DNA of 64,000 nucleotides from an uncultured Nitrospirales bacterium. Its GTDB lineage: Bacteria > UBA10199 > JADGCS01. Shown here one piece after another: positions 2,831-62,315 of this stretch; position 1 is the stretch's first letter; the number at the start of each line of letters is the position of its first letter. Below the pieces are notes generated by a model that did not search any database, was not told where the DNA came from, and saw only the letters and a program-made list of their open reading frames with translations. Both the position numbers and the translations under genes were made by a program. The stretch spans positions 3,191-67,190 of the forward strand of contig CAZSTS010000001.1 of assembly GCA_964609965.1 (NCBI GenBank), given 5' to 3'.

Positions 2831-3017
2831 AAACAAATCCACTCATCTATTATCATATTGATAATAGGGTGTCTCAGTCCCCCAGAAATCCCAATAATGA
2901 GACTCGAACACCCATTAAAGCTGACATGGGATATGAAATAAATGAAGCAAAAACCGGAAAAGACAATGATATCAATTAGATATGAAAGTTTCGATTTTTT
3001 TTAAAATTCTCCAAAGT

Positions 3018-3034
3018 TGGCAGGGCAATTGCAT
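3018..3034 (+). promoter_or_regulatory. Sigma-54 (RpoN) -24/-12 promoter candidate TGGCAGG-N4-TTGCAT
   Basis: GG (3019-3020) and GC (3031-3032) are separated by exactly 10 nt. TGGCA and TTGCA cores match the consensus. It lies 39 bp upstream of the ATG at 3073. Confidence 0.55.
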
Positions 3035-3072
3035 ACATAGATAGAGAGAATCAAAAAGCAAAAGGAGTAGTT

Positions 3073-3420: not shown

Positions 3421-3478
3421 AAAAGGGGTCAACTAGAGTATAATATTTAATTAATGTAAACTGTAATGAGAGGTATCT

Positions 3479-37710: not shown

Positions 37711-37886
37711 AAAACTGTAATTGCACATATGAGCCTTGTTCACGAAAAGGCACATGCTGTGATTGCATCTTGTATCATGTCAAAAGTCGACAACTACCTG
37801 CTTGCTGTTTTCCGACAAGTGCTGAGAGTACCTATGATCGTTCCTTTGAATTTTTTGCAAAACTTGTGAATGATGGGGATGTTTAA
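37683..37886 (+). CDS. Small Cys-rich protein (67 aa), hypothetical
   Basis: CNCTYEPC...GTCCDC...ACC, 11 Cys in total. Its 3' end is duplicated at 39060-39147. Confidence 0.5.
37797..37886 (+). repeat. Direct repeat copy A (~88 bp) flanking the kinase cassette
   Basis: About 88% identical to 39060-39147, including a 34-nt identical core ttcctttgaattttttgcaaa...cttgtgaatgatggggatgttt. Confidence 0.8.
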
Positions 37887-38917
37887 TAAGATCTAGGTGC
37901 TTTATATTTTGGTGGATTGTCTTGTAACTTTCGAAATATTGCTAAAAGTGGTTTGTGAGGAATGCGTTTCGTAGGATCTTTTTCTAGCATTCCAGCGAGG
38001 AGTTCATTGAGCTCAGGGCAATTTTCTAAAGGAATCATTGTTGCTGTTTCATGGATGTCTTTGAGAAAATAGTAAGGCATGTATTCATCAGTTTCTTCAT
38101 CTCTCATTTCTGCATAAGGATCTTGACCAGTTAACATGCGATAAAGGCAAATACCAAGGGCGTAAACATCTGTAGTTTGGTGTAATTGATAGTTCCAGAG
38201 TTCTGGAGCCATTTGAACAGGTGAGCCTTTTGCTTTTATGTCTACAACAAGATCTTCACTAGAAGGTATTTTCTCTCCATAAAAATGGCCTCCAATACCC
38301 CAATCACCAAGCATATAATCGAAAACATTACCTGGCTTGACATCACCATGGATAGTTAGAATACCTTTGGCTTTACCAGCCTCTAGAACATCAGATAATG
38401 CTTGTAGAATAAAACCTGCAAAGAATAATGCGCCAGTTACTTTGAGGTGTCCAAGCAATTCTAGGATATCTTTTAAACATTCGGTACCTACATCTCTAAT
38501 AAAGCAATAAGCGCCATTTACATACCCATGATCATAATATCGTGGAATATGAGGATTATCTAATGGATTCAGAATCTCACTGGCATAGGTAAATTCTGCT
38601 GACATAGTTTTGACTGCATTTTCTCTAAACTTGATATTGCTGGATGGTTTTTGTGTTATCTTTAATCTATCTCTAGGTGCGATTCTACGAATTCTATCAT
38701 GAAGATATCTAGGAGGATTTTTTTCATCGCTTCTAGCTACATTTATTGCCAAGGGTGGTAATTGATTATCTTGATTTTTGGGTTCTAATAAAAAAACATC
38801 ACAAAAAGAACCACTTCCTAAATACTTTGATACAGTATATAATTCAGCGGCCTGATTTAGGGGCATATCAAAATTTGATGAGCGGGTTAAATGACTTGTT
38901 AGCTTAGGAGAAAACAT
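37883..38917 (-). CDS. Soluble eukaryotic-like Ser/Thr protein kinase, atypical (HGD catalytic loop, DWG instead of DFG)
   Basis: Gly-rich loop GSGSFCDV, catalytic [16 protein letters not shown]. No TM segment. Confidence 0.75.
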
Positions 38918-39147: not shown

Positions 39148-39529
39148 GCGCTTGCCCTGAGCGATCCCGAGCTTGTCGAGGGAGAGTCGAAGGGTCTGAC
39201 GTGAGAAGAAAATCTTACATCCGGCAGTTTATATCTAACAGCTATTCTTTTATTTAGTATTTCCATGATATAATTACAAAATTCCATCTCAGTTTATTTT
39301 CATTTATCTAGCAACATCTCTTCCTCATTTTCGATAAGAATAATAATTATGGGTGACCGAAAGACAGGGTCATAGGGTATAGGATTAAACAAAAAAATAT
39401 AATGAGAAGATTTGGACACAATAGTGCCCGAAATCTTATTAAAATGGGAAACTTCAGTTGCTCAAGTGCGATCCTATTATAAGAATTGGTATGATAATGA
39501 CTTATGAGTAAATGATTAAGGAGACAACC

Positions 39530-42500: not shown

Positions 42501-42760
42501 GTCCGTTTAGAGCAGCTCCTGGAGAGAAGGCTCATAAGCTTGTTCCTCAAGATCCGTACGGCTTTGCTTCTTTCTTGGTTGGCATGAGAGGCTTAGGTCG
42601 ATTAGGCGTTACCTATAGCAGAGATTTTGGTATTGTGGGAGATTACCCTCCTTCAAATCGCCTAAGTATAGTTTTCATGGTTGCTCCTATACCTACTAAG
42701 GGCAAAAAGATTGAAGAAGAAGAGCCTGTTTTGACGATCCAGGCTCCAGACGATGAGTAA
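39530..42760 (+). CDS. Large acidic hypothetical protein (1077 aa from Met 7), orphan
   Basis: Start at the ATG preceded by taaggag. No signal peptide and no recognisable motifs. Central coiled-coil-like region and a Gly/aromatic-rich C-terminus. Confidence 0.6.
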   Translation: MANPIYSDILDVNDSGHFDVPDTHIIKKSIKEQDTQIALPPTEEGVFYIVDRSNLFAAFEEIEGCGEQGNCSEINGRTLQTSFSVSRPLAQTLNDQKLDQVTLENIDVFLRQIEGWNTDGETKIDCMSRLIAALFLDPSSMQEKKKWLADHTGENPSENFVASVQVVKERLEVARDPEVPNEQLSHVIEIFDVFLVMAELSQYIHQVEESSLDPDGFMRDINMADLDGMTFFTTRGFYVPKAITYEDRDVYAAYLKLVEKHVVLHYYFKFGMFEFFETPERLINTRVVISAEENPESGQIEKPRVELRKSLDGAFMPSIRKAFLDGLEGPKEWAEKVFDEGVMKLPETEAHPLYQVFGNVFLTLDTDSTNLSGALTGLVVWEEGVEEGDKTPEATWQRLLGEVETYPVIALKKMSLYVTYEAMGRVNDYEQLSREDWCALYALGPRPGTPQEVIDAFNNSARNWVFGINPSFLNTDGNPEGAETKKEPIEEYIDLIHELHSQDEGGISDEVFLAHREYIKKLIYLQGLMLLGQETTDDGMLASLSTVSLALQNLYRGDEAAYREAFVLFEEFKVDEIIDETGLDVGNINAEWLFDLREQADEMREDIKFTALYTQNQQILEATGDLKDDLQTIQDGITTLIDGQRQILDQADEQLGEFNFKNLAASTGRTVVRAVIDKRVDAITDLADELIIGISQSITFDGDIKDGLVQLGENCADFAFAQMRAILERLMANNQEMREIFGPFIEMIEDGDVSVDELRTLLNTIKTENPALLDLLSVDLPELEALIDEIEFYRGIVDDILGIIGTVTALVDAFESYARDIERVGKAIADRPTNIVALWQSNKETLMQHEASIQGLLDTLETQISEFSEGIEGRYANSPVVTILNEVAASVGKTKEVLEVLSFTKLNEMINKLARKLAEHLSWVNRGFIDLNYGEYGFQTGLALEQELWNFLRLGGTTYFDTSHTLGFEGHVCLSAKANDLTFDGCAGVGGPFRAAPGEKAHKLVPQDPYGFASFLVGMRGLGRLGVTYSRDFGIVGDYPPSNRLSIVFMVAPIPTKGKKIEEEEPVLTIQAPDDE

Positions 42761-45021: not shown

Positions 45022-45049
45022 ATATATGTGGTGTCTACACCCCATATAT
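45022..45049. promoter_or_regulatory. Palindromic operator-like site ATATATGTGGTGT-cta-CACCCCATATAT
   Basis: 12/13-bp inverted repeat, 55-80 bp upstream of the 45104 operon. Confidence 0.35.
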
Positions 45050-45103
45050 GGTAAATTTATGATATTACTTTGTTAGTGGCTAGTAGCTAGTAGCTTGTGA
45101 CTT

Positions 45104-45805
45104 GTGATATCGAGTCATGAAGAACGAGCGACGAGGAACGGATCCATGGTCGATAGAGTCGAAAACAGATTCGAGCAACCACATTTATATAGAGTAGATG
45201 GCACTAGAGATGCGCTCGAAGAAGAAAGAAGCAAAGACGGAAATGAAGGCGAAGACGAGGGCGAACCTGATAATTTTGATAAGCTCCGCGACAGCGATGA
45301 TTTAAGGTCTCTCTTTAATAAGGCTCATCTTTGGCAAAGAAATATCGAAGTCAAAGTTGAAGACATTGATAAAATCAAAGTTCTTGGTGTAAATCTCAAG
45401 ACTGATCCCTCTTTGTTAAAAATCAGGATATTTCTTTATGACGGACAAGTAATACCTACTGCTTTTCTTTCAATTTCTCGAGAGCTTGGGTTTAAGGTTC
45501 GCAGTCTTAAGGATACGGCGTTTATTGATGTGAATGTTTTGACAAAGGAACGGGTTTTACGCATCACAATGCCTAAAGATGAATCACAATTAGATGAAGA
45601 AATAACAAAAATTACAGGAACTGTTAAAGAAAAAACATTTTCTCAAACTTTTAAAAGACTAATTTCAAAAAAGAGCTGGTTTGAAAGGCTCGGGGTGCAA
45701 GATCCGGTTTCAAAAAAGGTTAATAATGAAATAGTCTGGGTATATATTACGGTCATTGCCTTAATCACAGTATTAAGTTTTGGCATAATGTATTTATTAA
45801 TATAA
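45104..45805 (+). CDS. Tail-anchored membrane protein, hypothetical (possible Hsp20-like core); GTG start or ATG at 45146
   Basis: C-terminal TM helix IVWVYITVIALITVLSFGIMYLLI. Stop overlaps the kinase start codon. Confidence 0.5.
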   Translation: MISSHEERATRNGSMVDRVENRFEQPHLYRVDGTRDALEEERSKDGNEGEDEGEPDNFDKLRDSDDLRSLFNKAHLWQRNIEVKVEDIDKIKVLGVNLKTDPSLLKIRIFLYDGQVIPTAFLSISRELGFKVRSLKDTAFIDVNVLTKERVLRITMPKDESQLDEEITKITGTVKEKTFSQTFKRLISKKSWFERLGVQDPVSKKVNNEIVWVYITVIALITVLSFGIMYLLI

Positions 45806-48411
45806 TGGCAAAATTCGAACCAAAACCTTTCGGAAAGCATTTTCTTACAGACCGCATAGCCATTGGCGGCATGGCCGAGATTTATAAAGCCAAGACTTTT
45901 GGTGTTGATGGCTTTGAGAAGGTTTTGGCTATCAAAAAAATCCTCGCTCATTACTCTGCCGACAAAGAATTCATTACCATGCTCACTGACGAAGCTAAGT
46001 TAGTGGTGAATTTATCTCATGCGAATATTGTTCAAGTATATGATTTAGGGCGTGTGGGAGATGATTATTTTATTTCAATGGAGTACATTGACGGTATTAA
46101 TCTGAGAGATTTGATTGAGCGTAGCCGCGAATTAGACGAAGCTGTGCCCATTGATGTGGCTGTTTATGTTCTTTCGGAGGTTTGTCGAGGCTTAGATTAT
46201 GCTCATAACAGAAAAGATGTCGAAGGTAAGCCGCTAAAAATTATTCATCGAGATATTTCACCCCAAAATATTCTTGTTTCTTATGATGGCGGTGTCAAAA
46301 TTGTAGATTTTGGCATTGCAAAGGCTGCCTATAATCTTTCTCAAACACACGCAGGTATTCTCAAGGGAAAAGTCAATTACATGGCCCCGGAGCAGGCTTT
46401 TGGCAAGCCTATGGATCATCGGTCAGATATTTTTTCATTGGGAATAGTGCTTTTTGAACTTCTCACGAATAAAAGACTTTTCCATGGCGAAACGCAGATG
46501 GAGATTCTCAAAAAAATCCGTAACAATAAAATCACAGAAGCCACTTTTGAAAAAGAAGAAATCCCCGCGTTTCTTAAACCTCTCATCGCTAAGTCATTAG
46601 CTTATTCACCAAATAAACGCTATGGATCAGCTGCTGATTTGCAAATTGATCTTACAAGAATTCTTTATTCCACGTATAATGATTTTACGCCCAGAAAACT
46701 CACCGAATTGTTAGACCGTTGGTTTTCGGACCGCAGACCCAACGATGATGATCCTGAGGATGATGAACGCGAAACAGTATTAGTGAGCTCTACAGATAAT
46801 CAAGTCGATCAGCAAATCAACATTGTTCATCGTGACGAATCACTAGATTTAGACAAAGATTCATTAGATGTTGATATGCAAGAAGAGACTATAAGTCCCG
46901 AAGATGGCTTAACTGGTGACTATTTTAAAGAACCTGATGATGATATTGATGATGATATTAAAGATGAGCACATAGAAAAAACTGAAAAAACAGAAAAAAG
47001 CGAGGTCACTCATCCTCGGGAAACAATTGATGATCTTCTGAGAAGAAAGGAGACACAAAGAATCAAGGCCTATAGGCGAACATCCATCTGGGTGATTATC
47101 TTTTTTATTTTCTGCTTAGTCTTTGGTTATTACTTATTTAACAAATATCATGAAGAGATTTTTAATTTTATCAACGGTCAAGAAATAGAAGTAGTGCCCA
47201 TTGATCCAAACGAAATTAACCAAGAAAAGCCAAGTCTGAAAATAGTTTCTGAACCCTCTGGAGCCTCTGTTTGGTTCAATGGTGAAAAAACTCAAAAAAC
47301 GACACCAGCAGATATTGAAAGCATAGAACTCAACAAAAAACATTCAATAAAGCTAGTTCTCGAAGGTTTTGCTGAGGCCGAACAAGATATCACTCTCACA
47401 AAAACCGAAAACCAACTCCTCACGTTTAATCTTAAGGCAATCAGTGCTAAAACATATCCACTTGTTATTGAATCCACTCCTTCTGGAGCTCAGGTGTATC
47501 TTGATGGAAAAGATACTGGCAAAAAAACGCCTGCTCGCATCGAAAAGCTAATTGCAGAACAATCCTATAAGATCACACTCAAGTTAGATAAGTATGAGGC
47601 CTATGAAGAAACCGTGGTGCAAAAGAACGACAAAGAAAAGAAGGTTGAATCGATTCTTGTCCCCATTCCTTTAGCCTCTGTTGTTATTAGTTCCGCACCC
47701 AAGGGAGCTGATATTTATATCAACGGAGAAAAAACACCCCATCAAACGCCATACACGTTTAAAGATCTAAGTGTTCCTTCAAAATTAAGTGTTACTCTTA
47801 AAAAAGAAGGGTATCATGAGGTCGTAGAGGATTTTTCAATCGAAGCTGCAAAAAAATACAAGAAAGATCTTAAATTAAAAGAGATCATTGTTGAGGTCCC
47901 TGTAAAAGTGACTACAAATATCTCTGGTGCTCAGGTCTATATCGGCAAAAAGAAAATGGGAACAGCGCCTCTCACATTCAAACTTACTCCAGGAAGACAT
48001 AAATTATACGTAAAAAGAAATAAGTATCAAACTCAGTCAAAGACAGTATTGATTAATAAAAAAGACAAAGATTTAAAGAAGTATTATTTTAAGCTCATTA
48101 AAGAACCTGTTGCTGCAACAACAACGACAACTACCACTACCACAACAAAACCCGTTGATTCGCACACAACAATGAACACAACAACAACGAATGTGGCTCA
48201 GCAGGGAAAGTTGCGTGTGGACTCAAGCCCTCGAGGAGCAAGTGTGTCTATAAATGGAGCAGGGAAGGGCATTACGCCATTGGTAGTTAGCGGTTTACCA
48301 AAGAATAAATCATTAACAATATCAGTATCAAAAAAAGGTTATCGAACTTGGAAGAGAACCATTAATTTAACCAGAGATAGAACAGAAATTAGTGCTGTTC
48401 TTACAAAATAG
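45805..48411 (+). CDS. Membrane Ser/Thr protein kinase (Hanks-type) with five extracytoplasmic PEGA domains
   Basis: HRDISPQNILV, DFGIAK, APE. TM helix IWVIIFFIFCLVFGYYLF. Five PEGA repeats (e.g. SEPSGASVWFNGEKTQKTTP) and a poly-Thr linker. Confidence 0.85.
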   Translation: MAKFEPKPFGKHFLTDRIAIGGMAEIYKAKTFGVDGFEKVLAIKKILAHYSADKEFITMLTDEAKLVVNLSHANIVQVYDLGRVGDDYFISMEYIDGINLRDLIERSRELDEAVPIDVAVYVLSEVCRGLDYAHNRKDVEGKPLKIIHRDISPQNILVSYDGGVKIVDFGIAKAAYNLSQTHAGILKGKVNYMAPEQAFGKPMDHRSDIFSLGIVLFELLTNKRLFHGETQMEILKKIRNNKITEATFEKEEIPAFLKPLIAKSLAYSPNKRYGSAADLQIDLTRILYSTYNDFTPRKLTELLDRWFSDRRPNDDDPEDDERETVLVSSTDNQVDQQINIVHRDESLDLDKDSLDVDMQEETISPEDGLTGDYFKEPDDDIDDDIKDEHIEKTEKTEKSEVTHPRETIDDLLRRKETQRIKAYRRTSIWVIIFFIFCLVFGYYLFNKYHEEIFNFINGQEIEVVPIDPNEINQEKPSLKIVSEPSGASVWFNGEKTQKTTPADIESIELNKKHSIKLVLEGFAEAEQDITLTKTENQLLTFNLKAISAKTYPLVIESTPSGAQVYLDGKDTGKKTPARIEKLIAEQSYKITLKLDKYEAYEETVVQKNDKEKKVESILVPIPLASVVISSAPKGADIYINGEKTPHQTPYTFKDLSVPSKLSVTLKKEGYHEVVEDFSIEAAKKYKKDLKLKEIIVEVPVKVTTNISGAQVYIGKKKMGTAPLTFKLTPGRHKLYVKRNKYQTQSKTVLINKKDKDLKKYYFKLIKEPVAATTTTTTTTTTKPVDSHTTMNTTTTNVAQQGKLRVDSSPRGASVSINGAGKGITPLVVSGLPKNKSLTISVSKKGYRTWKRTINLTRDRTEISAVLTK

Positions 48412-48423
48412 GTGAGGCATATT

Positions 48424-49851
48424 ATGTCAGATAAAGTAAATAAAGAAGTCGATGTGACAACAGCAATCATTGCTCCTGATGAAACAAGAGATCTTATATC
48501 ACTCAGACGCTATCAGCTTGTGGTTGTTGCTAAAGATAGTAATCGCCGAAAGTTTGAATTAGGTAAGAAAAAGGTGATTAAGATAGGAAAGAAAACCGAC
48601 AATGATATTGTAATTAACGACAAAACGGTTTCTCGTTATCATTCTGAGATTTATGTTACAGATGATAATACATATCTCTTAAAAGATAAGAATTCTACCA
48701 ATGGAACCACAATCAATTCCATGAAAGTTAAAGAAGCCTATCTTTCACAGGGAGATCTCATTGAAATTGGTGAAACAAAGATCGAGTTTCAAACTTATGA
48801 TGAGTCTGTGCAAATTGAGCCAAGCTCAAATAATTTTTTTGGTGATATGGTGGGAAAAAGTCGAAAAATGAGACAGATTTTTGGTATTTTAGAGAGAGTT
48901 AGTAAAACACAGGCAACTGTTATCATTGAGGGAGAAACAGGCACAGGAAAAGAGTTGGTGGCCAGAGCTATTCACACTAATTCACCACGTAAAGACAAAC
49001 CTTTCATCGTTTTTGATTGTTCGTCTGTGGCACCAAATCTTATCGAGTCTGAGCTTTTTGGACACACTAAAGGGTCGTTTACAGGTGCTCTCAAGGATCG
49101 TTTGGGTGCTTTTGAGGCAGCCAATGGGGGAACCATTTTTCTTGATGAAATTGGTGAGCTCAGCATGGATTTGCAACCAAAATTATTACGTGCGCTTGAG
49201 CAACGTGAAATAAAACGTGTTGGTTCAACAAGAGCCATTAATCTCGATGTTCGTGTAGTCACAGCTACGAATCGAAACCTAAAAGAAGAAGTAAAGGCCA
49301 GTACTTTTAGAGAAGATCTGTATTACCGGCTTTCGGTGGTAAAAATTCAGGTGCCATCTTTACGTGAAAAGCTCGAAGACATTCCATTGCTTGTCGAAAA
49401 AATATTAAGTGTGGCTAGATTTAATCGCAAGGGTGATGGGAGTTTTTATGTGGCACGAATTGAGGACGATGCTTTAAAAATGCTTCAACGTTATCAGTGG
49501 CCAGGCAATGTGCGAGAGCTTACAAATATTCTTGAACGGGCTGTGAGTTTTTCGGAAAATGGCGTGGTCAAGGGAGTCCACCTTCAATACGTGTTTAGTG
49601 AGGTCGAAACAGGTGAGGAAGCCACAGTACGTCTCCAGGGCATTGCCATGGACAGGCCTTTTAAGGAGGCCAAGCAAGCTGTTGTGGAAGAGTTCGAAAA
49701 AGAATATCTCCAAGATCTATTGCAACGTAATAATGGCAATGTGTCTAAGGCAGCTCGCGAAGCCAAGATCGACCGCAAACATCTTCGCAATCTTCTTATC
49801 AAATACGAAATCATCAAGTCTGATGCTGAGTTATTAGAAGATGGGGAGTAA
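48424..49851 (+). CDS. Sigma-54-dependent transcriptional activator with N-terminal FHA domain
   Basis: FHA motif VSRYHSEI...STNGTTIN. AAA+ motifs GETGTGKE, ESELFGH and GAFEAANGGTIFLDEIGEL. C-terminal HTH. Start at ATG 48424 with SD ggtgagg. The ORF-track start is 48412. Confidence 0.88.
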   Translation: MSDKVNKEVDVTTAIIAPDETRDLISLRRYQLVVVAKDSNRRKFELGKKKVIKIGKKTDNDIVINDKTVSRYHSEIYVTDDNTYLLKDKNSTNGTTINSMKVKEAYLSQGDLIEIGETKIEFQTYDESVQIEPSSNNFFGDMVGKSRKMRQIFGILERVSKTQATVIIEGETGTGKELVARAIHTNSPRKDKPFIVFDCSSVAPNLIESELFGHTKGSFTGALKDRLGAFEAANGGTIFLDEIGELSMDLQPKLLRALEQREIKRVGSTRAINLDVRVVTATNRNLKEEVKASTFREDLYYRLSVVKIQVPSLREKLEDIPLLVEKILSVARFNRKGDGSFYVARIEDDALKMLQRYQWPGNVRELTNILERAVSFSENGVVKGVHLQYVFSEVETGEEATVRLQGIAMDRPFKEAKQAVVEEFEKEYLQDLLQRNNGNVSKAAREAKIDRKHLRNLLIKYEIIKSDAELLEDGE

Positions 49852-50065
49852 GAAACTATTCCTGTTAACTATAGCTATTTACTTAATTAAGTGATTAGTG
49901 AAAAGGAATAGTGAAAAGTTCGCAGCCATATCTCTAACAATAACAACAATATAACTCTCCTAAAATAATCACACAACCTATTGATGTCAATGGCGATAAG
50001 ATTTAGAGTAAAACAGATTTAGGCATACAATTTTAATTAAACACATAAGTTCATAGGAGGTTTTT

Positions 50066-50659
50066 ATGGGTATATTTGGGCAAGCTGCCGATGCATTAGC
50101 TCGTGATAAAGTATTATCAGAACAAACATATGGTGTTGTTGGAGAAACCTTACCAGAAAATTACGATGCGCCAATCGAAATCAAACTTGTGGAAAAAAGA
50201 GCGGTCGGCTCTGAATCTACATATGAATTGAGAACGAAAGTGAGAAAGGATGGACAGGTTTATACACAAACAGATGAACTAAATACGGGGACACATGTTT
50301 GGGACAGTTTAAACAGAATCGAAGTTTATCCCATACCTCAGTATCATGGAATTGATTGTATAGAGGCTAATTCAACTTGTTGGCAGGTTTCGGCTGTGTT
50401 TTTAGGTGAATCAGGAAATTATTACCTTCATCAAAATTCATACCAAATTGGTAATCCAATAGATGGCGACAATGTTTTTTGGGCTACATATGGTTCAAGA
50501 GAATTAACACAAACTTCAGAAGATTATGAACTAGCAGAAATGACAACTAACCAAGATGACAATGAGCTTAAGTTAGTTTTCGAACACACTGATGGTGAAT
50601 CAGAACCATCTGTTGAGACAACAATCCTAGATCCTGGTCCTGGATTTGGTCTGTTGTAG
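50066..50659 (+). CDS. Hypothetical protein (197 aa), candidate toxin/effector partner of macro-domain protein
   Basis: Strong SD aggagg 6 nt upstream of the ATG. No recognisable motif. Acidic C-terminus. Confidence 0.6.
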   Translation: MGIFGQAADALARDKVLSEQTYGVVGETLPENYDAPIEIKLVEKRAVGSESTYELRTKVRKDGQVYTQTDELNTGTHVWDSLNRIEVYPIPQYHGIDCIEANSTCWQVSAVFLGESGNYYLHQNSYQIGNPIDGDNVFWATYGSRELTQTSEDYELAEMTTNQDDNELKLVFEHTDGESEPSVETTILDPGPGFGLL

Positions 50660-50743
50660 AATATTCTATTTGAAATTCCTATTCCAATAGTAATAAGTGA
50701 TATCTCAGTATGGGGTATGAATGAATTGCAGTGAGGAGACATC

Positions 50744-51640
50744 ATGAGGATACCAGCAGTTACGGCAGCGTATGAAGCAGCAGGTCAAATTCCAGCAGTA
50801 TTAGCAGCAACATTGGTAACAACTTCGGCCTGGGCAGGTGATGCAGCTTCAAGTGGTTCAGAAGTTGCTAATTCGAATACAGGAGTACTAAAGCTGTTTG
50901 GTGATGTGTGTGAATTAGCAATAACAAATCCTATTCCTACAATCGCCATAGGAGCAGGTGTAGGTATAGCAGTTCTCGGTGGTGTGTATTTTGGAGTTGT
51001 AAAACCAAAGCTTAGAGATGCTCAATCTGCTATTAGAGGAGCAGCGTTTCTTCTTGGCGAAGCAAGAGGATTAGAACAAAAGGCAGGTATAAGGAGAAGC
51101 GAAATGGCAACATCAGGACAAATCGAAGTTATTCAAGGCAACATTACAGAGCAAAGTGTAGATGCTATTGTGAATGCAGCTAATTCTGATTTAGCTGGAG
51201 GTGGCGGTGTTGATGGTGCAATTCATAGTGCAGCTGGATGGGATGAATTACAAGCTTTGTGCAAACCCTTGGGAGGGTGCCCAACAGGTAGTGCCAAAAT
51301 GACAGGGAGTTGTGGGTTGGCTGAAAGAGGTATTAAGCACATCATCCATGCTGTGGGACCAATTTATGGGAGGAATGCTGGCAGGGACGATGAACTTTTA
51401 GCAGGATGTTATCGAGAATCTTTGCGTCTTGCTGAAGAAAGTGGTGACATCGAGTCCATTGCCTTTCCCGCCATTAGTACAGGTGTTTATGGTTTTCCTG
51501 CAGCTCTAGCTGCCAAGATTGCAGCCAGAGAAATCAAAGCCTTTCTTGCAACAAGTCAAAATGTTAAAAGAGTCGTTTTAGTAGGATATAGTTCTGATTC
51601 AACTAGAGTGCTTGCAAAAGGAGTGAGGAAAGCGCGGTGA
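50744..51640 (+). CDS. Macro-domain (MacroD/YmdB-type ADP-ribose hydrolase) protein with 120-aa hydrophobic Gly/Ala-rich N-terminal extension
   Basis: NAANSDLAGGGGVDGAIHSAAG, AFPAISTGVYGFP. An alternative internal start at 51104, with SD aaggag, would give the macro domain alone. Confidence 0.75.
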   Translation: MRIPAVTAAYEAAGQIPAVLAATLVTTSAWAGDAASSGSEVANSNTGVLKLFGDVCELAITNPIPTIAIGAGVGIAVLGGVYFGVVKPKLRDAQSAIRGAAFLLGEARGLEQKAGIRRSEMATSGQIEVIQGNITEQSVDAIVNAANSDLAGGGGVDGAIHSAAGWDELQALCKPLGGCPTGSAKMTGSCGLAERGIKHIIHAVGPIYGRNAGRDDELLAGCYRESLRLAEESGDIESIAFPAISTGVYGFPAALAAKIAAREIKAFLATSQNVKRVVLVGYSSDSTRVLAKGVRKAR

Positions 51641-51654
51641 TTGTCTCATTTTCC

Positions 51655-51800
51655 AATCCCAGTCCCATTTATGAGACTTAAGTGAGACTCATTTGGGACT
51701 GAAATATCAAATCAATAAGATCTAACCTGTTGATATTTTATCTATAAATATATTTAACTCTTTGGCATGGTTGGTGCAATATAGCTCTTAAAGGAGATGT
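51655..51800 (+). repeat. ~150-bp repeated intergenic promoter element, copy 1 (second copy 53293-53443)
   Basis: About 85% identical to copy 2. Begins cccagtcccatttatgagacttaagtgagactcatttgggactg. Confidence 0.8.
51763..51779 (+). promoter_or_regulatory. Sigma-54 -24/-12 promoter candidate TGGCATG-N4-GTGCAA inside repeat copy 1
   Basis: GG (51764-51765) and GC (51776-51777) are exactly 10 nt apart. Confidence 0.5.
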
Positions 51801-51874
51801 ATGCCTTGCTATACTCAACTTTTTCTTTGTTTTTTTTGAGCGAGAAAAGTATAATAAGATATACATATAGATAT

Positions 51875-52135
51875 ATGTATAAACTACTTTTGTCTGAAGT
51901 TGTTAAAAAGCAGTGTAAAAATATTCCGAGAAAAGACTTGGAAAAGATTAAAAACATCGTTTCAGAATTGAGAAAAGAACCACGACCTAGAAAGTGTAAG
52001 AAGCTTAGTGGTGGAAAACAAGAATATAGAATCAGGTATCGTTATTGGAGAATACTATATTCTGTTTATGATAATAATAATAATAATACCATTGTTGTTT
52101 ATGGTGTTTTGTCAAGGAAGGAGGCCTATCGATGA
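51875..52135 (+). CDS. RelE/ParE-family type II toxin (ORF track start 51797; Met at 51875 fits family length)
   Basis: KKLSGGKQEYRIRYRYWRILYSVYD...TIVVYGVLSRKEAY signature. Contains an in-frame (AAT)5 Asn run. Confidence 0.7.
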   Translation: MYKLLLSEVVKKQCKNIPRKDLEKIKNIVSELRKEPRPRKCKKLSGGKQEYRIRYRYWRILYSVYDNNNNNTIVVYGVLSRKEAYR

Positions 52136-52335
52136 AAACTGTGTCCGTAAAACTTGATGATTATGTACTTAGCCTTTTAAATTCAGAAGCAAAAAAACGA
52201 AAAGTAACCCGTATGGAGATCATAAGATCCTCAATAATCAAATTTCTACTTAGTACAAGTGATGCTGAAGATTTGGAATATATCAAAAATCATAAAAATG
52301 ATAAATTAGTGGGTTTTGATAAGGTGTTTAAGTAA
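52132..52335 (+). CDS. Ribbon-helix-helix (CopG-like) antitoxin
   Basis: KTVSVKLDDYVLSLLNSEAKKRKVTRMEIIRSSI. Overlaps the toxin stop as ATGA. Confidence 0.65.
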   Translation: MKTVSVKLDDYVLSLLNSEAKKRKVTRMEIIRSSIIKFLLSTSDAEDLEYIKNHKNDKLVGFDKVFK

Positions 52336-52405
52336 TCGATCCCAAAACCGCAGTCATTCGTTAGCTACTCGTCGAAGCGCTCATGTCGAGGAAGAAAATG
52401 GCGTG
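52336..52405 (+). pseudogene. 3' remnant of a brnA-like antitoxin gene (~90% identical to 54193-54264), interrupted by in-frame TAG
   Basis: atcccaaaaccgcagtcattcgttagct...gtcgaagcgctcatgtcgaggaagaaaatggcgtga aligns with the end of the 54010-54261 gene. Confidence 0.65.
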
Positions 52406-52451
52406 AGGGGGGTATTTGTAATATTCATAAACATAATGTATTAATTACTTA

Positions 52452-53294
52452 GTGAAAAATCTTCATTACACACCACAGTCTCTCATCAAAAAGTTACAAG
52501 AACTTGATAAAGAATTAGACTGGAAAGAGTTATTAAGAAATGGCTATCAGAAATCTGCTGTTTTTGATGCTGATGGGACTTTGTGGAAAGACAATCTTTC
52601 AGCGAGAATGATAGAAGAAGATACAAGGAATCGAAACCTGTCAGAAAAAGGCCTTAATGCTTTAAATCAGCATTTAATCTATTTCAATCTAGAGCCACAA
52701 GAGACGATTTATTTGGCTAAAGCTAAATTGACTGAAGCTTTCTGGAGTGGAGAACTGTATAAAATAGCAAAAGACCTTAAACCATCTTTGAATGAAGATG
52801 AAGTGCATGAGAAAATATGGAATCATTATAACTTGCTCTATGTTGGTTTATCACCACAGGAATTAGAAGAGAAAGCCACACGTTTTTTGGAGCAGGGTTT
52901 TAAAGATAACTTTTATAAAGGCATGGAAGAGGTTATTCGTTATTTAAAAAGAGCTGGATTTAAACTCTACGTTGTAAGTGCTGGAGTACATGAATTCGTG
53001 ACTGCTGGGGCTCGCTTGCTTGGTTTTAACAAGAGTGATGTTCATGGATTGAAATTAAAGGTGGTAGATGGGCTCATCACTTCCGAAACCGAACTTCCTG
53101 TTACGTATAAGGATGGAAAAACTCAAATAGCAACGAAGTTGTGTGGAGGAAAACCTTTTCTTGTCTTTGGTGATTCTGTCTCTGGTACAGATGAAAAAAT
53201 CTTAGAAGAAGCGTATTTTCCTGTGGCAGTTGAGCCTGAGGGTAAAGATCTAAAAATAGCTCAGGAAAAGGGGTATGCAATATTAGGTTTCTAG
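52452..53294 (+). CDS. HAD-superfamily hydrolase (subfamily IB-like)
   Basis: Motif I VFDADGTLW and motif IV GDSVSGTDE. Confidence 0.65.
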   Translation: MKNLHYTPQSLIKKLQELDKELDWKELLRNGYQKSAVFDADGTLWKDNLSARMIEEDTRNRNLSEKGLNALNQHLIYFNLEPQETIYLAKAKLTEAFWSGELYKIAKDLKPSLNEDEVHEKIWNHYNLLYVGLSPQELEEKATRFLEQGFKDNFYKGMEEVIRYLKRAGFKLYVVSAGVHEFVTAGARLLGFNKSDVHGLKLKVVDGLITSETELPVTYKDGKTQIATKLCGGKPFLVFGDSVSGTDEKILEEAYFPVAVEPEGKDLKIAQEKGYAILGF

Positions 53295-53443
53295 TCCCAG
53301 TCCCATTTATGAGACTTAAGTGGGACTCATTTGGGACTGATGTTTCAAGTCAATAAGATCTAACCCATTGATATTTAATCTATAATTAATTTTCACAGAT
53401 TGGCATAGTTGGTGCTTAATCATATCTTAAGAAAGGAGATATT
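53293..53443 (+). repeat. ~150-bp repeated intergenic promoter element, copy 2
   Basis: Same inverted-repeat head and tail as copy 1. Contains the SD aaggagatatt before the ATG at 53444. Confidence 0.8.
53401..53417 (+). promoter_or_regulatory. Sigma-54 -24/-12 promoter candidate TGGCATA-N4-GTGCTT inside repeat copy 2
   Basis: GG (53402-53403) and GC (53414-53415) are 10 nt apart. Lies 27 nt upstream of the ATG at 53444. Confidence 0.5.
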
Positions 53444-53710
53444 ATGAATAAGTATCCATATGAACTCATAAAGTACTCATCTTTTGGTTATTATGCCTTT
53501 GGTGAAAGTGATTTCATCATTACACCTCCACAGTGTTATCTTGATTTAGGAAGTTCAAAAGCAGAAAGACAGGAGCGCTTTCGCCAAATGGTGGATTTGA
53601 TTCTCAAACATGATTTTCCAGATGCCACATATTGGGAAGAGTATGCTTCAGTCAGCAATCCATTCTGGGTATGTGAACGGTATGAAGAAATTGTGGAAAA
53701 GCTAAATTAA
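53444..53710 (+). CDS. Hypothetical small protein (88 aa)
   Basis: Good SD and a sigma-54 candidate promoter upstream. No motif recognised. Confidence 0.55.
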   Translation: MNKYPYELIKYSSFGYYAFGESDFIITPPQCYLDLGSSKAERQERFRQMVDLILKHDFPDATYWEEYASVSNPFWVCERYEEIVEKLN

Positions 53711-53774
53711 TCTAAGTAGATAAAGGATATATTAATAACATTGCAAATGCATATCAATTTAATATATAATAAAT

Positions 53775-54047
53775 ATGTATTCGTGGGATAATAAGAAGAA
53801 TAAGAGTAATATTCAAAAACATGGTATTAGTTTCGAAGAAGCAAGAGATCATATTTTTGAAAAGGATAATATTTTAGTAACTAATGTAGCCTACAACAGA
53901 GGTGAGAAACGTCATGCAGTGATAGGTAGGTACCTAGATAAATACTATGTTGGGATATTTACTTTCAAAAGAAAAACGATTCGAATTATTTCAGTGAGGA
54001 GGGCTCGCTATGAAGAAGAAAAACAAGCAAAAGAAAAAGGACTTTGA
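53775..54047 (+). CDS. BrnT-family (DUF497) type II toxin
   Basis: SWDNKKNKSNIQKHGISFEEA...RIISVRRARYEEEK matches the BrnT signature. Confidence 0.75.
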   Translation: MYSWDNKKNKSNIQKHGISFEEARDHIFEKDNILVTNVAYNRGEKRHAVIGRYLDKYYVGIFTFKRKTIRIISVRRARYEEEKQAKEKGL

Positions 54048-54261
54048 TCAAGAGTTTTCAGACGGAAAAGTGGCTGTTGATTTTACTGCCGGTGTTAAAA
54101 CAAGTGGACTCAGTCGTGTAAAGAAACTCCCTCCTATGACAATTCCTGCCTGGCTAAATGCCGAAATTGAAAAAATATCCAAATTACAAGCCAATCCCAA
54201 AACAGCTGTCATTCGTCAGCTTCTTGTCGAAGCGCTCATGTCGAGGAAGAAGATGGCGTGA
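54010..54261 (+). CDS. BrnA-family RHH antitoxin
   Basis: C-terminal RHH TIPAWLNAEIEKISK...AVIRQLLVEAL. Overlaps the brnT end. Confidence 0.7.
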   Translation: MKKKNKQKKKDFDQEFSDGKVAVDFTAGVKTSGLSRVKKLPPMTIPAWLNAEIEKISKLQANPKTAVIRQLLVEALMSRKKMA

Positions 54262-54270
54262 TGGATGAGA

Positions 54271-56103
54271 TTACCCCAAAATTTCTTCTAACTTCCTATC
54301 AAATTTCTGATTGAGTACATCAAACTCAAGGCTGAGTTTTTCAAAACGATCAAAAGAGATGTCTATTTCATTCATGGCCTCTTTGGCTTCTTTGGAGAGT
54401 CTCACAATCTCATCACCATTCTGTTCTTGAGAAGCTACTTCTAACTCCTTATGGATCGAGGCTTCTTTGGCTTCTAATTCGAATATTTTCTTCTCAAGTG
54501 CCTTTATCTCCCTTTGTCTTGGTTTCATGACCTTGTCTCGCTCTTCCCTAAGACCTGCTTTGAGTTTACGAAGCTCTTTTTTAGGATGCGTTGTTTGTGT
54601 GCTGGAAGGTTTGTTCTCCTCATCTCCCCAGCCCACTTTTTCTAAGAATTCATCATAAGACCCATTAAAAATAGTCACTTCATCGTCTTTGAAGACAATG
54701 ATTTTATTGGCAATGGATTTCAATATCATCTCAGAATGAGTCACCATGAGAAGAGCGCCTTTGTACCCGCTGATAGCCGTAACAAGCGCATCAATAGATT
54801 GCATATCAAGATGGTTGGTGGGTTCATCGAGTAGGAGTAGATTTGTAGGAGCTGCAATAACTTTTCCAAGCATCACGCGGCTTCTTTCACCTCCAGAGAG
54901 AACAGAGATTTTCTTTTCGGCAAACTCCCCACTAAACATCATGCAACCACAAATAGTTCTCACTCCTGTACGATCTAACCCGGGATTAGAGCTTTGAACT
55001 TCTTCTTCGACCGTGCATCGCTCAGAGAGTTCATCGATGTTTGTTTGAGCAAAGTACCCTGTTTTTACAAGCTCATGCTTATGAACACTTCCTTTTTGAG
55101 GACTGAGTTCTCCTGCCAAAAGTTTGATGAGGGTGGATTTGCCTTTTCCGTTTTTGCCCACAATAGCAATTCTATCATCTGGACGTACAGTGAGAGAAAA
55201 ATCTTTTATGAGAGGAGATGCAGGATCATAGCCAAATTGAAGGTCTTCTATCTTCATCAATTGCTTGCTTTGGATTGGCTTGTATTGAAACTTGAAACCT
55301 AGATTGGCAATTTTCGAAAGGACTTCTTTTTGCGAGAGTTTTGCAATCACCTTCATCTTAGATTGAGCGGCCGAGGCCTTGGTAGCCTTTGTTCCAAAGC
55401 GTTCCACAAATCTTTCCAAATGCTTTCTTTGTCGCTCTTCATTCAAACGTGTTTTTTCATAAACCTCTTCATCTTGTTCTATTTGGGCATATATTTTTTG
55501 GGTATTTCCCCTCATCTTTCTTATCTTTGTTCTATGGATACAGGCAGTGTGGGTTGTTACCTGATCCATAAATCCTCTATCATGTGAAATAATAATCAAT
55601 TCATGTTTCCAATTACGCAAAAACTTGATGATCCAGCGGATTGAAATAACATCGAGATAGTTTGTGGGTTCGTCTAGGAGCAAGAGATGGGGGTTGGAAA
55701 TCAAAACTTTAGCAAGGTTTAATCTTACCTGAAAACCGCCTGAGAATGTCTCGGGTGATTTATCCAAATCTTCTTTTGTAAAACCAAGGCCAAAAAGAAT
55801 CTTTTCTACTTTGTAAGTATCATTAATTTCATCTGGCAAAAGTCCAAGACAACCTTCTTCTAGAATAGTCGGTTTTGTAAAATTGAGGAGCTGAGCCACG
55901 TGCCCGATTCGATAGTCTTTTGGAAAGATAATGCTTCCTGAATCAGTAGAGGATTCTTCAAGGATCATTTGAAACAAAGTTGTTTTTCCAGATCCATTTC
56001 GGCCCACGAGTCCAATACGTTCTCCCTGGTGAATTTGTAAGCTAGCCTTATCAAAGAGGATTTGAGGGCCATAGGATTTTGAGATGTTCTCAATCGTCAG
56101 CAT
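54271..56103 (-). CDS. ABC-F family ATPase (two ABC cassettes, no TMD; EttA/Uup-like)
   Basis: Two Walker A sites (GRNGSGKTT, GKNGKGKST), two LSGG signatures and a linker. Confidence 0.88.
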   Translation of the reverse strand: MLTIENISKSYGPQILFDKASLQIHQGERIGLVGRNGSGKTTLFQMILEESSTDSGSIIFPKDYRIGHVAQLLNFTKPTILEEGCLGLLPDEINDTYKVEKILFGLGFTKEDLDKSPETFSGGFQVRLNLAKVLISNPHLLLLDEPTNYLDVISIRWIIKFLRNWKHELIIISHDRGFMDQVTTHTACIHRTKIRKMRGNTQKIYAQIEQDEEVYEKTRLNEERQRKHLERFVERFGTKATKASAAQSKMKVIAKLSQKEVLSKIANLGFKFQYKPIQSKQLMKIEDLQFGYDPASPLIKDFSLTVRPDDRIAIVGKNGKGKSTLIKLLAGELSPQKGSVHKHELVKTGYFAQTNIDELSERCTVEEEVQSSNPGLDRTGVRTICGCMMFSGEFAEKKISVLSGGERSRVMLGKVIAAPTNLLLLDEPTNHLDMQSIDALVTAISGYKGALLMVTHSEMILKSIANKIIVFKDDEVTIFNGSYDEFLEKVGWGDEENKPSSTQTTHPKKELRKLKAGLREERDKVMKPRQREIKALEKKIFELEAKEASIHKELEVASQEQNGDEIVRLSKEAKEAMNEIDISFDRFEKLSLEFDVLNQKFDRKLEEILG

Positions 56104-56394
56104 GAAAGCGTAATATCAAAAATCACCAAAGATTAACACGTTAAAGATTATCAACCCAAAATTTGGGTTTGAATCCACGGGGTTTACCCCGTAAACATAA
56201 AAAATATTCAGATTCAAACCCCGTTGCTTGCTGCGGGGTCATTGATCTGACGCTTAGGAGCACTGAAATCGTGTGTCCGGCAAATATTGCCTATCATTTT
56301 GATAAATAACCAATATTTTCTCATATATTATTCGCTTAACGGCTGAAAAAAATGAATATATTGCGATATATCAAGGGTTTATATTTGAAGGCTA

Positions 56395-56411
56395 TGGCAT
56401 CAATTTTGCAT
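56395..56411 (+). promoter_or_regulatory. Sigma-54 -24/-12 promoter candidate TGGCATC-N4-TTGCAT
   Basis: GG (56396-56397) and GC (56408-56409) are 10 nt apart. The predicted leader to the ATG at 56425 would be very short. Confidence 0.4.
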
Positions 56412-56424
56412 TAGTAAAGTCATT

Positions 56425-58272
56425 ATGAAAAAACAAAATATATTAAAAAAAGGGTTTATTTGTTTAATTGTGGCCATGGCATGTGTAGCCTTGATTCATT
56501 GCTCATCATCAGATTCAGGATCGAGCGGTGATACGACGCCAAATACTAATGAAGAAGTTCTCGCTCTCACAGCAACAACTCAATCTGTGTGGTATTATCT
56601 TGATTCGGATGGAGATGGAGAAGGAGAAATCGAAAACCAACGCGTGAAATATTATGATTCTAACAGCAATCTTTTAATGAAAACAATTGCTGATACTGAC
56701 GGAAATGTAGAATCTGAGAGAACGTATACCTATGATGCTAATGGCGACCTGCTTAGTATTTCAATTGATTCAGATAATGATGGTTCATACGATTCTATTT
56801 CAGAATATGAGTACAATGATAAATCACAATACATAGGGTTTACCTATAAATCTAAAGACGAAGAAGAAAAATTAGAGACAGTTTATACAAAAACATTTGA
56901 ACGCACTTACAATGATGATGGAAATCTTACAAAAATAGTAGAGAACAAAGACGGAGAATTACAATCAACCACAGACTTTGAGTACAGTAAGTCTGGTGAT
57001 TATTACGGTGTATTTGTAAAAGCTTATTCTTCAACAAATATGATTACTGAGGTAAACTTCTTTCTTTTTGATAGTACAGATGATTACCAGAGCTGTCTAT
57101 TTACAAGTGCCATTGAAGCAATTTGTGATCTTAGAATAGCTTACCACGTTACTTCAGAAATAATATATTATGATGCCAGAACATATGATAGTTACAAAAA
57201 CGAAACGCAAACTCTGTCCTATTATGATGAAACCCCTGAATCAATGGTGCCTTCATTAGATCTTTCCCTTGATAGCTTGTTAGCCTTGTTTACTAATTAT
57301 ACTTCATTCCCAGTAAAAGGTGAGGTCACAACAACGTATACGTACGAAGAAGATTCAGATAAAATACTAAAAAAGAATGTCAATACAGTTTTTACTACTA
57401 CTTATAGTGATGGAGTTGATACAGCACTTGATTCAGAAGATGGAGATAGTACTGATGCAGATGAAACAAGTGCAAGCGTGCAGACTCAAATCGAGATCTA
57501 TTGGTACCTTATTTATGATATAGTAAATGATGCCTATTTTGTTCTAGCAGATGAAGACGGTAACAATATTTCTGATGAAGTAGATGCAATTTTAGCAGGA
57601 GGTGTAGAAGGAATTGCAGGGAGTGCAGAAGAAACTTGTGATGGCAAGGACAATGATGGTGATGAAGAGATTGATGAAGGCGTCATGACGACTTATTACG
57701 ATGATGATGACCATGATGGCTATGGAGACCCTGCTGTGACTTCTGAGGCCTGTAGCAAACCCACTGGTTATGTAGAGAATGCCTTAGATTGTGATGATAC
57801 AGATAGAGAAGTGACAACTGCAGAGGAAACAATATGGTATTTGGATGATGATGGTGATGGTGAAGGAGATGAAACGAGTACTAAAACTGGTTGTGAAGCA
57901 CCTGAAGGTTATGTAGATAATGCTGATGATTGCGATGATACTAACCCAAATGTTTATAAAGATAATGAAGAAGTCTGTGATGGTATAGATAACGACTGTG
58001 ATGATAGAATAGATGAATATTTTACTGAAAGAACCTACTATGCGGATTCAGATGAAGATGGGTATGGGGATCCAGCTTCAACTATTGACTATTGTGAACA
58101 ACCAGATGGCTATGTGACGGATAATACAGATTGCGATGATGATAATGCAAACATTCATCCTGGACATGGAGAAGTTTGTGCTGATGGTGTAGACAGTAAT
58201 TGTGAAGATGGCGATACCGAAACATTCTCAGATGGTGAGTGCACAATGAGATATGCACCTTTTGGGATATAG
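56425..58272 (+). CDS. Lipoprotein with C-terminal MopE-type Cys/Asp-rich 'putative metal-binding' repeats
   Basis: Lipobox VALIHCSSSD. Repeats ...YYDDDDHDGYGDPA...CDGxDNDCD... x4. Confidence 0.7.
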   Translation: MKKQNILKKGFICLIVAMACVALIHCSSSDSGSSGDTTPNTNEEVLALTATTQSVWYYLDSDGDGEGEIENQRVKYYDSNSNLLMKTIADTDGNVESERTYTYDANGDLLSISIDSDNDGSYDSISEYEYNDKSQYIGFTYKSKDEEEKLETVYTKTFERTYNDDGNLTKIVENKDGELQSTTDFEYSKSGDYYGVFVKAYSSTNMITEVNFFLFDSTDDYQSCLFTSAIEAICDLRIAYHVTSEIIYYDARTYDSYKNETQTLSYYDETPESMVPSLDLSLDSLLALFTNYTSFPVKGEVTTTYTYEEDSDKILKKNVNTVFTTTYSDGVDTALDSEDGDSTDADETSASVQTQIEIYWYLIYDIVNDAYFVLADEDGNNISDEVDAILAGGVEGIAGSAEETCDGKDNDGDEEIDEGVMTTYYDDDDHDGYGDPAVTSEACSKPTGYVENALDCDDTDREVTTAEETIWYLDDDGDGEGDETSTKTGCEAPEGYVDNADDCDDTNPNVYKDNEEVCDGIDNDCDDRIDEYFTERTYYADSDEDGYGDPASTIDYCEQPDGYVTDNTDCDDDNANIHPGHGEVCADGVDSNCEDGDTETFSDGECTMRYAPFGI

Positions 58273-58290
58273 TTTTTTGAATGAGTGCTA

Positions 58291-58362
58291 AAGTAGGGGC
58301 GTCCCTTGTGGGCGCCCGTATTATATTAAGTATTCGGGTAGGCACTAGGCCTACCCCTACGA
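58291..58362. terminator. GC-rich nested palindromes (GTAGGGGCG...CGCCC; GGTAGGC..GCCTACC; ..CCCCTACgaaaat) between convergent genes
   Basis: Shares GTAGGGGC / CCCCTACGAAA words with the hairpins at 16012 and 21746. Confidence 0.5.
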
Positions 58363-58393
58363 AAATATAGATAGTTAACAGGACTAGTTCCTA

Positions 58394-58693: not shown

Positions 58694-58747
58694 AACTCTG
58701 TAATATCCTTATATAATCATATTATCGGTCAAAAATTCGATAAGTTG

Positions 58748-59692: not shown

Positions 59693-59772
59693 GAACTGAT
59701 TTCAGCGATTTAAGAAGAAATGAAGGGGAAAGCAATGAATAAGTTAATAGGAATAGTTAACAGGAATAGTTT

Positions 59773-62019: not shown

Positions 62020-62315
62020 AAATTCCGACTCTTCTAATTCTAACGCAATATGTTTTCATGTGGGTTCATCTACAACACCATGAATTCCATATTCCCCTAA
62101 GATATTGAAGCAATATGCATGCCAGAATCTGCAAATAAAAAGGGCAGAAAATACGGAATGTTACTGAATTATTCAATACTTAGAGGCAAAACTTGCCTAT
62201 AAAATACAGATATTAACTGTAAAATTCCTAATAAAGTGTACTTGGATAGGAATGAGGAAACTTCATAATAACGTCATACTTGCTTGTCCTTTATCTTCTT
62301 GATAACGGCGTGCGT

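Follow-up and report, generated by a model that had tools for sequence, protein, structure and literature searches.

The 64-kb stretch of contig CAZSTS010000001.1 analyzed here (hereafter the window), which comes from an uncultured Nitrospirales bacterium, carries on its plus strand three closely packed genes that encode, in this order, a small membrane protein (gene 1), a Hanks-type Ser/Thr kinase with PEGA domains, and a sigma-54 enhancer-binding protein (EBP) with an FHA domain, hereafter the activator. In the list of open reading frames (ORFs) they occupy 45104/45146-45805, 45805-48411 and 48412/48424-49851, and the coding span of the trio is 45146-49851. The stop codon of gene 1 and the ATG of the kinase have one base in common (TAATG at 45803-45807), and the kinase stop codon (TAG, 48409-48411) is followed by AGGTGAGG, with a ribosome-binding site, and then by the ATG at 48424, a gap of 12 nucleotides (nt). 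The first-pass annotation of this DNA, which had described the genes as overlapping at 45805 or abutting before 48424, was right on both junctions. For gene 1, an ATG at 45146 with the ribosome-binding site GAGGAA competes with a GTG at 45104; judged from its homologues the ATG is the likely start, because 17 of 17 are 215-220 amino acids (aa) long and one of them, of 219 aa, is 100% identical. As read from the sequence, the trio is one conserved operon of an uncultured lineage, and its members are very probably linked in function. Rfam and tRNA scans of the window gave no matches.

Products of the three genes

The kinase matches Pfam Pkinase (PF00069) at residues 20-275 (E = 7e-42) and PEGA (PF08308) over five stretches (E = 4e-62), and hydropathy gives one hydrophobic segment, at residues ~428-446, between the catalytic domain and the PEGA repeats, which is the layout that had been proposed earlier. 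Among four aligned orthologues, the catalytic residues K44, E63, HRD 148-150, N155, DFG 168-170 and APE 194-196 are invariant, as are S179 and T181 of the activation loop, while the linker shows poor conservation; by its motifs, the cytoplasmic domain appears to be catalytically intact. Elsewhere in the window, a second, divergent kinase-like ORF of 344 aa (37883-38917, minus strand) matches Pkinase (E = 4e-16) at model positions 44-254 only, and may be a pseudokinase.

In the activator, Pfam places an FHA domain (PF00498, residues 56-120, E = 8e-18) directly N-terminal of the AAA+ core, which matches Sigma54_activat (PF00158, residues 146-313, E = 8e-70) over the full model (1-168) and also AAA_lid_14, and finds HTH_8 (PF02954, E = 9e-8, above the cut-off), matching the combination of FHA, sigma-54 AAA+ and helix-turn-helix (HTH) domains claimed in the first-pass annotation. 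The Walker A sequence GETGTGKE and the Walker B residues D241/E242 are invariant in 58 orthologues, and so are F219, T220, G221 and A222 of the sigma-54-contact loop (GAFTGA type), which here reads GSFTGA. By these motifs, the protein is a genuine sigma-54 activator. The NCBIfam models nearest to its AAA+ core are NifA, NorR and NtrC, with every equivalog cut-off missed. The AlphaFold2 (AF2) model has a mean predicted local distance difference test (pLDDT) score of 78, falling below 50 at residues 1-26.

Two parts of the N-terminal region bear on how the activator might be controlled. In the FHA pocket, G55, S70-R71-x-H73 and S91-T92-N93-G94-T95 are invariant among 120 aligned orthologues, and the best match among solved FHA structures is GarA (Rv1827; E = 1e-10), including its closed form with phosphorylated Thr22, followed by Rv1747, TB39.8/FhaA, EmbR and OdhI. 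In the tail before this domain, T13 is present in 118 of the 120 orthologues with L/I at +2 and +3, forming the motif TT[A/S]I[I/L], and the adjoining positions are variable. Thr followed by hydrophobic residues at +2/+3 also occurs at, or within one residue of, the T13 column in about 23 of 26 distant FHA-type EBPs, and in the alignment the motif (E/D)-x-T-T-[A/S/Q]-[I/V]-[I/L] resembles 'VETTSVF' of GarA.

Gene 1 had been overlooked in the first-pass annotation, which identified the kinase and activator pair correctly and missed their conserved third partner. Its product has a transmembrane (TM) segment at residues ~197-218 and an AF2 model with a mean pLDDT of 69 (core ~80-88); neither a Pfam or NCBIfam family nor a PDB fold at E<=0.001 was matched. 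With 80 representatives among 1.84 billion proteins, its family is small and confined to the lineage, and gene 1 is the fastest-evolving member of the trio, with 65% identity where the activator has 88%. The product is probably a partner of the kinase. T133, T154 and T157 are invariant in its 17 close homologues, and the motif EEIT(K/R)(I/V)T is invariant among close homologues too. In the wider family of 85 members this motif is not kept and no Thr is conserved, and gene 1 was accordingly demoted as a conserved phospho-substrate.

Table 1. Positions of the operon, its parts and other features within the window.
Feature	Position (nt)	Strand	Details and basis
Gene 1, 219 aa, tail-anchored product	45146..45805	+	Acidic disordered N-terminus, beta-rich core, C-terminal TM helix
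Hanks-type Ser/Thr kinase, 868 aa	45805..48411	+	Pfam, motif invariance, hydropathy
Kinase, catalytic domain	45862-46629	+	Followed by acidic linker
Kinase, TM helix	~47086-47142	+	
Kinase, five extracytoplasmic PEGA domains	~47300-48390	+	
FHA-domain sigma-54 EBP (activator), 475 aa	48424..49851	+	Pfam, AF2
Activator, FHA domain	48577-48771	+	Pfam; preceded by disordered N-tail
Activator, AAA+ domain	48847-49350	+	Pfam
Activator, HTH_8	49684-49791	+	Pfam
N-tail motif T12-T13-A-I-I	48457..48471	+	T13, candidate phospho-acceptor and FHA ligand
K56	48589..48591	+	Lys in place of the phosphate-contacting Arg of the FHA 'GR' motif
Conserved dyad TGTGGTGTCTACACCCCA	45027..45044		TGGGG-N8-CCCCA type, 1 mismatch; candidate operator; intergenic alignment
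Sigma-70-like promoter TCTACA-18-TATGAT	45034..45063	+	Overlaps dyad; consensus scan, weak match only
Conserved upstream block AGTCCC..TCCCA..TGAGACT..CCCAT, then sigma-54 promoter TTGGCAGGGCAATTGCA (3018-3033)	2868..3033	+	
Sigma-54 promoter CTGGCATGCATATTGCT	62109..62124	-	~100 nt upstream of 748-aa/314-aa/99-aa secreted-protein operon
Sigma-54-like motif TGGCATCAATTTTGCA	56395..56410	+	15 nt before ATG of MopE/RHS-repeat ORF; within island; without upstream block
Strain-specific island, ~8.5 kb	49852..58393		Inverted repeats 49851-49885 / 58358-58392 at ends
128-nt repeat, copy 1	51650..51777	+	42-nt palindrome CAGTCCCA..TGGGACTG, IHF-like TATCAACAGGTTA (reverse strand), then TGGCATGGTTGGTGCA
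128-nt repeat, copy 2	53288..53415	+	Ends in TGGCATAGTTGGTGCT; upstream of 88-aa ORF, then BrnT/BrnA-like pair

Conservation and control region of the operon

The activator has many relatives that are 62-88% identical, in uncultured genomes (ACD, CG11, K02) that bear the label 'Deltaproteobacteria' or 'bacterium'. The order gene 1-kinase-activator recurs on about ten contigs (L001, L002/L003, L004, L085, L086, L087, L088 and a JGI contig of 559 kb), and kinase and activator are adjacent at L005. The flanks of the module vary among these loci, with dnaK in some and flagellar export or trp genes in others.

A sample of more distant relatives was drawn from species-representative genomes, in which the 80 loci listed comprise 23 with an FHA-type EBP, from Myxococcota, Bradymonadales and others (35-66% identity), and 57 with a non-FHA EBP. 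Within the fetched flanks of up to 8 kb on each side, a Hanks kinase was found at 12 of the 23 FHA-type loci versus 2 of the 57 non-FHA loci (Fisher p=1.5e-6). Eight of the 12 kinases at FHA-type loci are 37-44% identical to the window kinase in the catalytic domain, that of L005 is 65% identical, and those of L016, L018 and L035 are 28-31% identical, as are the kinases at the two non-FHA loci. These identities suggest that the pairing of kinase and activator is old.

Two neighbourhoods among the relatives are of interest in their own right. At L088 (638-3376 and 5241-6152), a second PEGA kinase lies immediately upstream of an FHA-GGDEF protein that keeps the canonical 'GR' and has 'ETIVTS' in its N-terminal part, and a nucleotide cyclase with a C-terminal FHA domain is also encoded; the lineage therefore reuses a design of PEGA kinase plus FHA output. 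At L002 (9893-17389) and L004 (9574-17452), the module adjoins a four-gene TPR-containing operon with its own sigma-54 promoter, which is followed by fliR-Q-P-O-N-M. Such neighbours hint at some connection with flagellar or envelope functions, and nothing similar is present in the window.

Upstream of gene 1, an alignment of the dnaK-gene 1 intergenic region from five genomes contains a sole conserved block, TGTGGTGTC-N-ACACCCCA-..-TGnTAAATT, in which lies the dyad listed in Table 1. With at most one mismatch, the dyad is found upstream of the module at L001, L002 (two copies), L004, L085, L086 and L087, and the upstream region of L088 has the same TGTGGTGTCCACACCCCA. It is missing only at L005 among the orthologous loci examined, and is present at loci away from dnaK (L002, L004). 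It also occurs just upstream of a distant FHA-type EBP gene at L006, and at L002 a perfect copy lies ~100 nt upstream of a perfect sigma-54 promoter, TGGCACGCCAGTTGCT. This distribution fits a binding site of the activator that might serve in autoregulation as well as in activation. Autoregulation through sigma-54 was rejected, as no -24/-12 element was found upstream of the operon and a match at 45199 lies inside the coding sequence of gene 1. A role of TGGGG-N8-CCCCA as a general enhancer was likewise set aside, the operon's own dyad being the only match with at most one mismatch in the window; the dyad and the blocks upstream of sigma-54 promoters share short G/C words only, in a set of sites that was partly picked by eye. 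Further upstream, a 1082-aa ORF (39512-42760) located just before dnaK has no Pfam match at E<=0.01.

Proposed signalling and its alternatives

Taken together, we hypothesize that the kinase signals to the FHA domain of the activator, which is the best explanation that we can offer and, in our judgment, a moderately probable one. The link between the kinase and the FHA-type EBP is well supported by comparative genomics, through evidence that is circumstantial. In the scheme that we propose, where each phosphorylation and binding step, the signal and the regulon are predicted from sequence, an envelope or external cue would lead the membrane kinase to phosphorylate a threonine, and the FHA domain, in place of a two-component receiver, would read the phosphothreonine (pThr). 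The most likely phospho-site would be the activator's own T13 in the disordered tail, an assignment that we make tentatively. Capture of pT13 by an FHA domain might then act as a switch in the assembly of the AAA+ ring and in open-complex formation at sigma-54 promoters. The operon itself would be read from the sigma-70-type promoter overlapped by the G/C-tract dyad, an overlap that suggests autoregulation, and the tail-anchored product of gene 1, which is translationally coupled to the kinase, would probably be a partner of the latter. The first-pass annotation had already put forward a one-step kinase-to-FHA pathway that replaces the usual receiver. Conserved synteny and the kinase excess at FHA-type loci favor that pathway, but it is not new; moreover, 'one-step' may mean phosphorylation of the activator's own N-terminal Thr, and a substitution in the FHA pocket had escaped notice.

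That substitution is one of several observations that weigh against our hypothesis. In the alignment with GarA, position 56 falls on the Arg of 'SAGRHPD'; 119 of 120 orthologues have Lys there and most distant FHA-type EBPs have S/T/A/G, so that pThr binding by this FHA domain is an assumption. The linker from T13 to the first FHA strand is only ~12 residues, which is short for binding in cis, so that capture by a neighbouring subunit would be likelier. The AF2 model of the activator has no docked N-tail, residues 1-26 being disordered, and therefore gives no structural support for docking either way. In the K02 orthologue the kinase is without the PEGA region, so that the sensor part would be dispensable. 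Among those window ORFs that were scanned, none was identified as a PP2C phosphatase, and the 64-kb window has no rpoN. About half of the distant FHA-type EBP loci are without a kinase in the fetched flanks. Further, taxonomy confounds the kinase excess, since most FHA-type EBPs are from the kinase-rich Myxococcota, and the excess therefore counts as supporting evidence, short of proof.

Other explanations are conceivable for the same gene arrangement. The FHA domain might bind pThr in the activation loop or linker of the autophosphorylated kinase, or on the gene 1 product, so that the activator would be held at, or released from, the membrane and T13 would not be the switch. Such recruitment or sequestration would suit the invariant S179 and T181 of the kinase as well as a gene 1 product that is membrane-anchored, always co-located, translationally coupled to the kinase and equipped with three invariant Thr in close homologues, and mycobacterial FHA proteins dock on phosphorylated kinases and on substrates such as MviN. 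However, the conserved Thr of gene 1 do not extend to its wider family, the kinase linker is poorly conserved, and the conservation of T13 in distant FHA-type EBPs that have no gene 1 would be left unexplained, which makes this explanation unlikely. MviN is mentioned in PMC12599244.

It is less likely still that the FHA-like domain does not read pThr at all and is instead a phospho-independent regulatory or oligomerization domain, with the kinase acting on other substrates and its adjacency reflecting co-expression only. The missing canonical Arg would be accounted for, and there is a further Pfam match to Yop-YscD_cpl, whose FHA-like domains are not known to bind pThr. On the other hand, the Lys retains the positive charge, the S70-R71-x-H73 and S91-T92-N93-G94-T95 motifs are invariant, the best solved matches named above are true pThr-binding FHA domains, and adjacency to a kinase is conserved family-wide. 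Finally, the kinase might stand beside the activator by chance in a kinase-rich genome. Lineages of this kind do encode many kinases, and the window itself holds the second kinase-like ORF, yet order, strand and near-zero spacing are kept across about ten contigs with differing flanks, and the kinase enrichment among the 80 loci is hard to reconcile with coincidence, which we regard as highly improbable and strongly disfavor.

The hypothesis of kinase-to-FHA signalling places the operon in a class that is known from myxobacteria since 2005, and the system is ordinary in kind, because its architecture and proposed logic match those of the FHA-type EBPs of Myxococcus xanthus. The latter were reportedly described by Jelsbak, Givskov and Kaiser in PNAS in 2005. 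As in the window activator, an N-terminal FHA domain is followed by a sigma-54 AAA+ domain and a C-terminal HTH, and Ser/Thr kinase input has been proposed to replace input from a histidine kinase and receiver; related Myxococcota proteins are 35-50% identical to the activator among the matches listed. The window system differs in coming from another, uncultured low-GC lineage, in its fixed operon with a specific PEGA kinase and a lineage-specific tail-anchored protein, and in the invariant Lys at the FHA Arg position. The activator shares with NtrC-type activators the AAA+ and HTH output and, as proposed here, a phosphorylation-controlled N-terminal domain that governs ring assembly, but the system has neither a receiver domain nor a histidine kinase.

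Parallels for the proposed switch also lie outside transcription. As in the activator, the FHA domain of GarA (M. tuberculosis Rv1827) and OdhI (Corynebacterium) is preceded by a disordered N-tail that bears a TT[S/A][V/I][F/I] motif. The N-tail Thr of GarA is phosphorylated by a Hanks kinase (PknB/PknG) and then bound by GarA's own FHA domain. Unlike the activator, GarA regulates metabolism as a stand-alone protein, and it has a linker of ~30 residues and the canonical Arg. The window FHA domain is fused to a sigma-54 AAA+ activator, the linker before it is short (~12 residues), Lys takes the place of the Arg, and the switch is predicted from sequence comparison. PpkA-Fha1, the threonine-phosphorylation pathway of the H1 type VI secretion system of Pseudomonas, likewise has a membrane Hanks kinase and an FHA protein encoded together, the FHA protein serving as the read-out of the kinase. 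Its output, however, is the post-translational assembly of a secretion machine rather than transcription, and no type VI secretion genes are present in the window.

The new points are modest: three genes in a fixed operon, Lys for Arg in the FHA pocket, an N-tail Thr that is conserved, and the operator. Sigma-54 activators with an FHA domain were recognized two decades ago, and a literature search of incomplete coverage found none with a defined cognate kinase, phospho-site or switching mechanism, nor any paper on PEGA kinases or on the biochemistry of kinases with FHA-type EBPs. No current view is overturned. Rather, the operon is a tidy, testable example of a mechanistically unsettled class and a clean case, with a single kinase, activator and accessory protein whose order is fixed, one nearly invariant candidate phospho-Thr and a conserved operator, and a few sigma-54 promoters with conserved upstream blocks could be used as reporters. 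It might therefore be a convenient system for asking how Ser/Thr phosphorylation couples to the assembly of an AAA+ activator. A bolder generalization, which we consider doubtful, is that FHA-type sigma-54 activators in general are GarA-like self-contained switches: a co-evolving Hanks kinase would phosphorylate a conserved Thr of the disordered N-tail, and the FHA domain of an adjacent protomer would then capture this residue, which would drive or block hexamer assembly. In this lineage, the PEGA kinase and the N-tail-Thr/FHA module would then stand in for two-component systems in plug-and-play fashion; outputs (sigma-54 AAA+, GGDEF, cyclase) could be exchanged, and a tail-anchored protein would be the dedicated accessory.

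Candidate sigma-54 promoters and the adjacent island

The activator is the only EBP in the window, where TGGC-N8-TGC occurs 13 times versus 5.8 expected. Sigma-54-like motifs are present at all four positions listed as candidate promoters in the first-pass annotation (3018, 51763, 53401 and 56395). Only the first of these is conserved, in three genomes; the other three lie in a strain-specific island, and a further site at 62124(-) was overlooked. Conserved promoters of the type TGGCA-N6-TTGC are present at 3018 and 62124(-), and the assignment of any promoter to the activator is a lead.

The window, L091 and L092 all keep the -24/-12 element at 3018 and a conserved block ~120 nt upstream of it amid diverging flanks. 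Two ORFs of 115 and 161 aa follow the promoter. Together with the block they span 2868-3964; both are small and acidic, the pair is conserved across the lineage, and the 115-aa protein has 42 homologues. At the position of the 62124(-) promoter, the relatives have CTGGCATATGGATTGCG (L085) and CTGGCACATAGCTTGCG (L086), and in relatives the secreted-protein operon that it precedes is the immediate convergent neighbour of the activator. This minus-strand operon (58394-62124) encodes proteins of 748 aa (secreted or lipoprotein-like), 314 aa (secreted, Cys-rich) and 99 aa (basic); Pfam gave no family for the first two and NCBIfam none for the third. Its promoter has no TGGGG-N8-CCCCA dyad, and a different activator may act on it, such as the GAF-type EBP that lies nearby in L085 and L086.

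The island lies exactly between the activator stop codon and the convergent 99-aa gene, and the inverted repeats at its boundaries are imperfect. In L085, L086 and the JGI 559-kb contig it is absent, and the activator is directly convergent with genes of 100, 315 and 750 aa. By this comparison the island is outside the conserved system, and the motifs at 51763, 53401 and 56395 cannot be part of a conserved regulon, because they are inside a segment that is missing from the relatives. It encodes a 197-aa hypothetical protein, a membrane-anchored Macro-domain protein, two toxin-antitoxin cassettes, a HAD hydrolase, an ABC-F ATPase and a MopE/RHS-repeat protein; no transposase was recognized in it.

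A 128-nt direct repeat occurs twice, with 86% identity between its copies, which end in the motifs at 51763 and 53401; the block upstream of 3018 resembles the left half of this repeat. The IHF-like match in the repeat was read against the consensus WATCAANNNNTTR, and the succession of palindrome, IHF-like site and -24/-12 element is the classic arrangement of enhancer, IHF site and -24/-12 promoter. The 42-nt palindrome had no match in a metagenome scan. Each copy of the repeat precedes a toxin-antitoxin cassette, copy 1 lying upstream of a ParE/RHH cassette; the BrnT/BrnA-like pair behind copy 2 was read by eye, NCBIfam giving no match. A second direct repeat of 71 nt (52339-52409 and 54194-54264, 90% identity) brackets both cassettes together with the 128-nt repeat, and its 52339-52409 copy is non-coding, a remnant of the BrnA-like gene's 3' end. 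The arrangement looks like the duplication of a cassette followed by its replacement.

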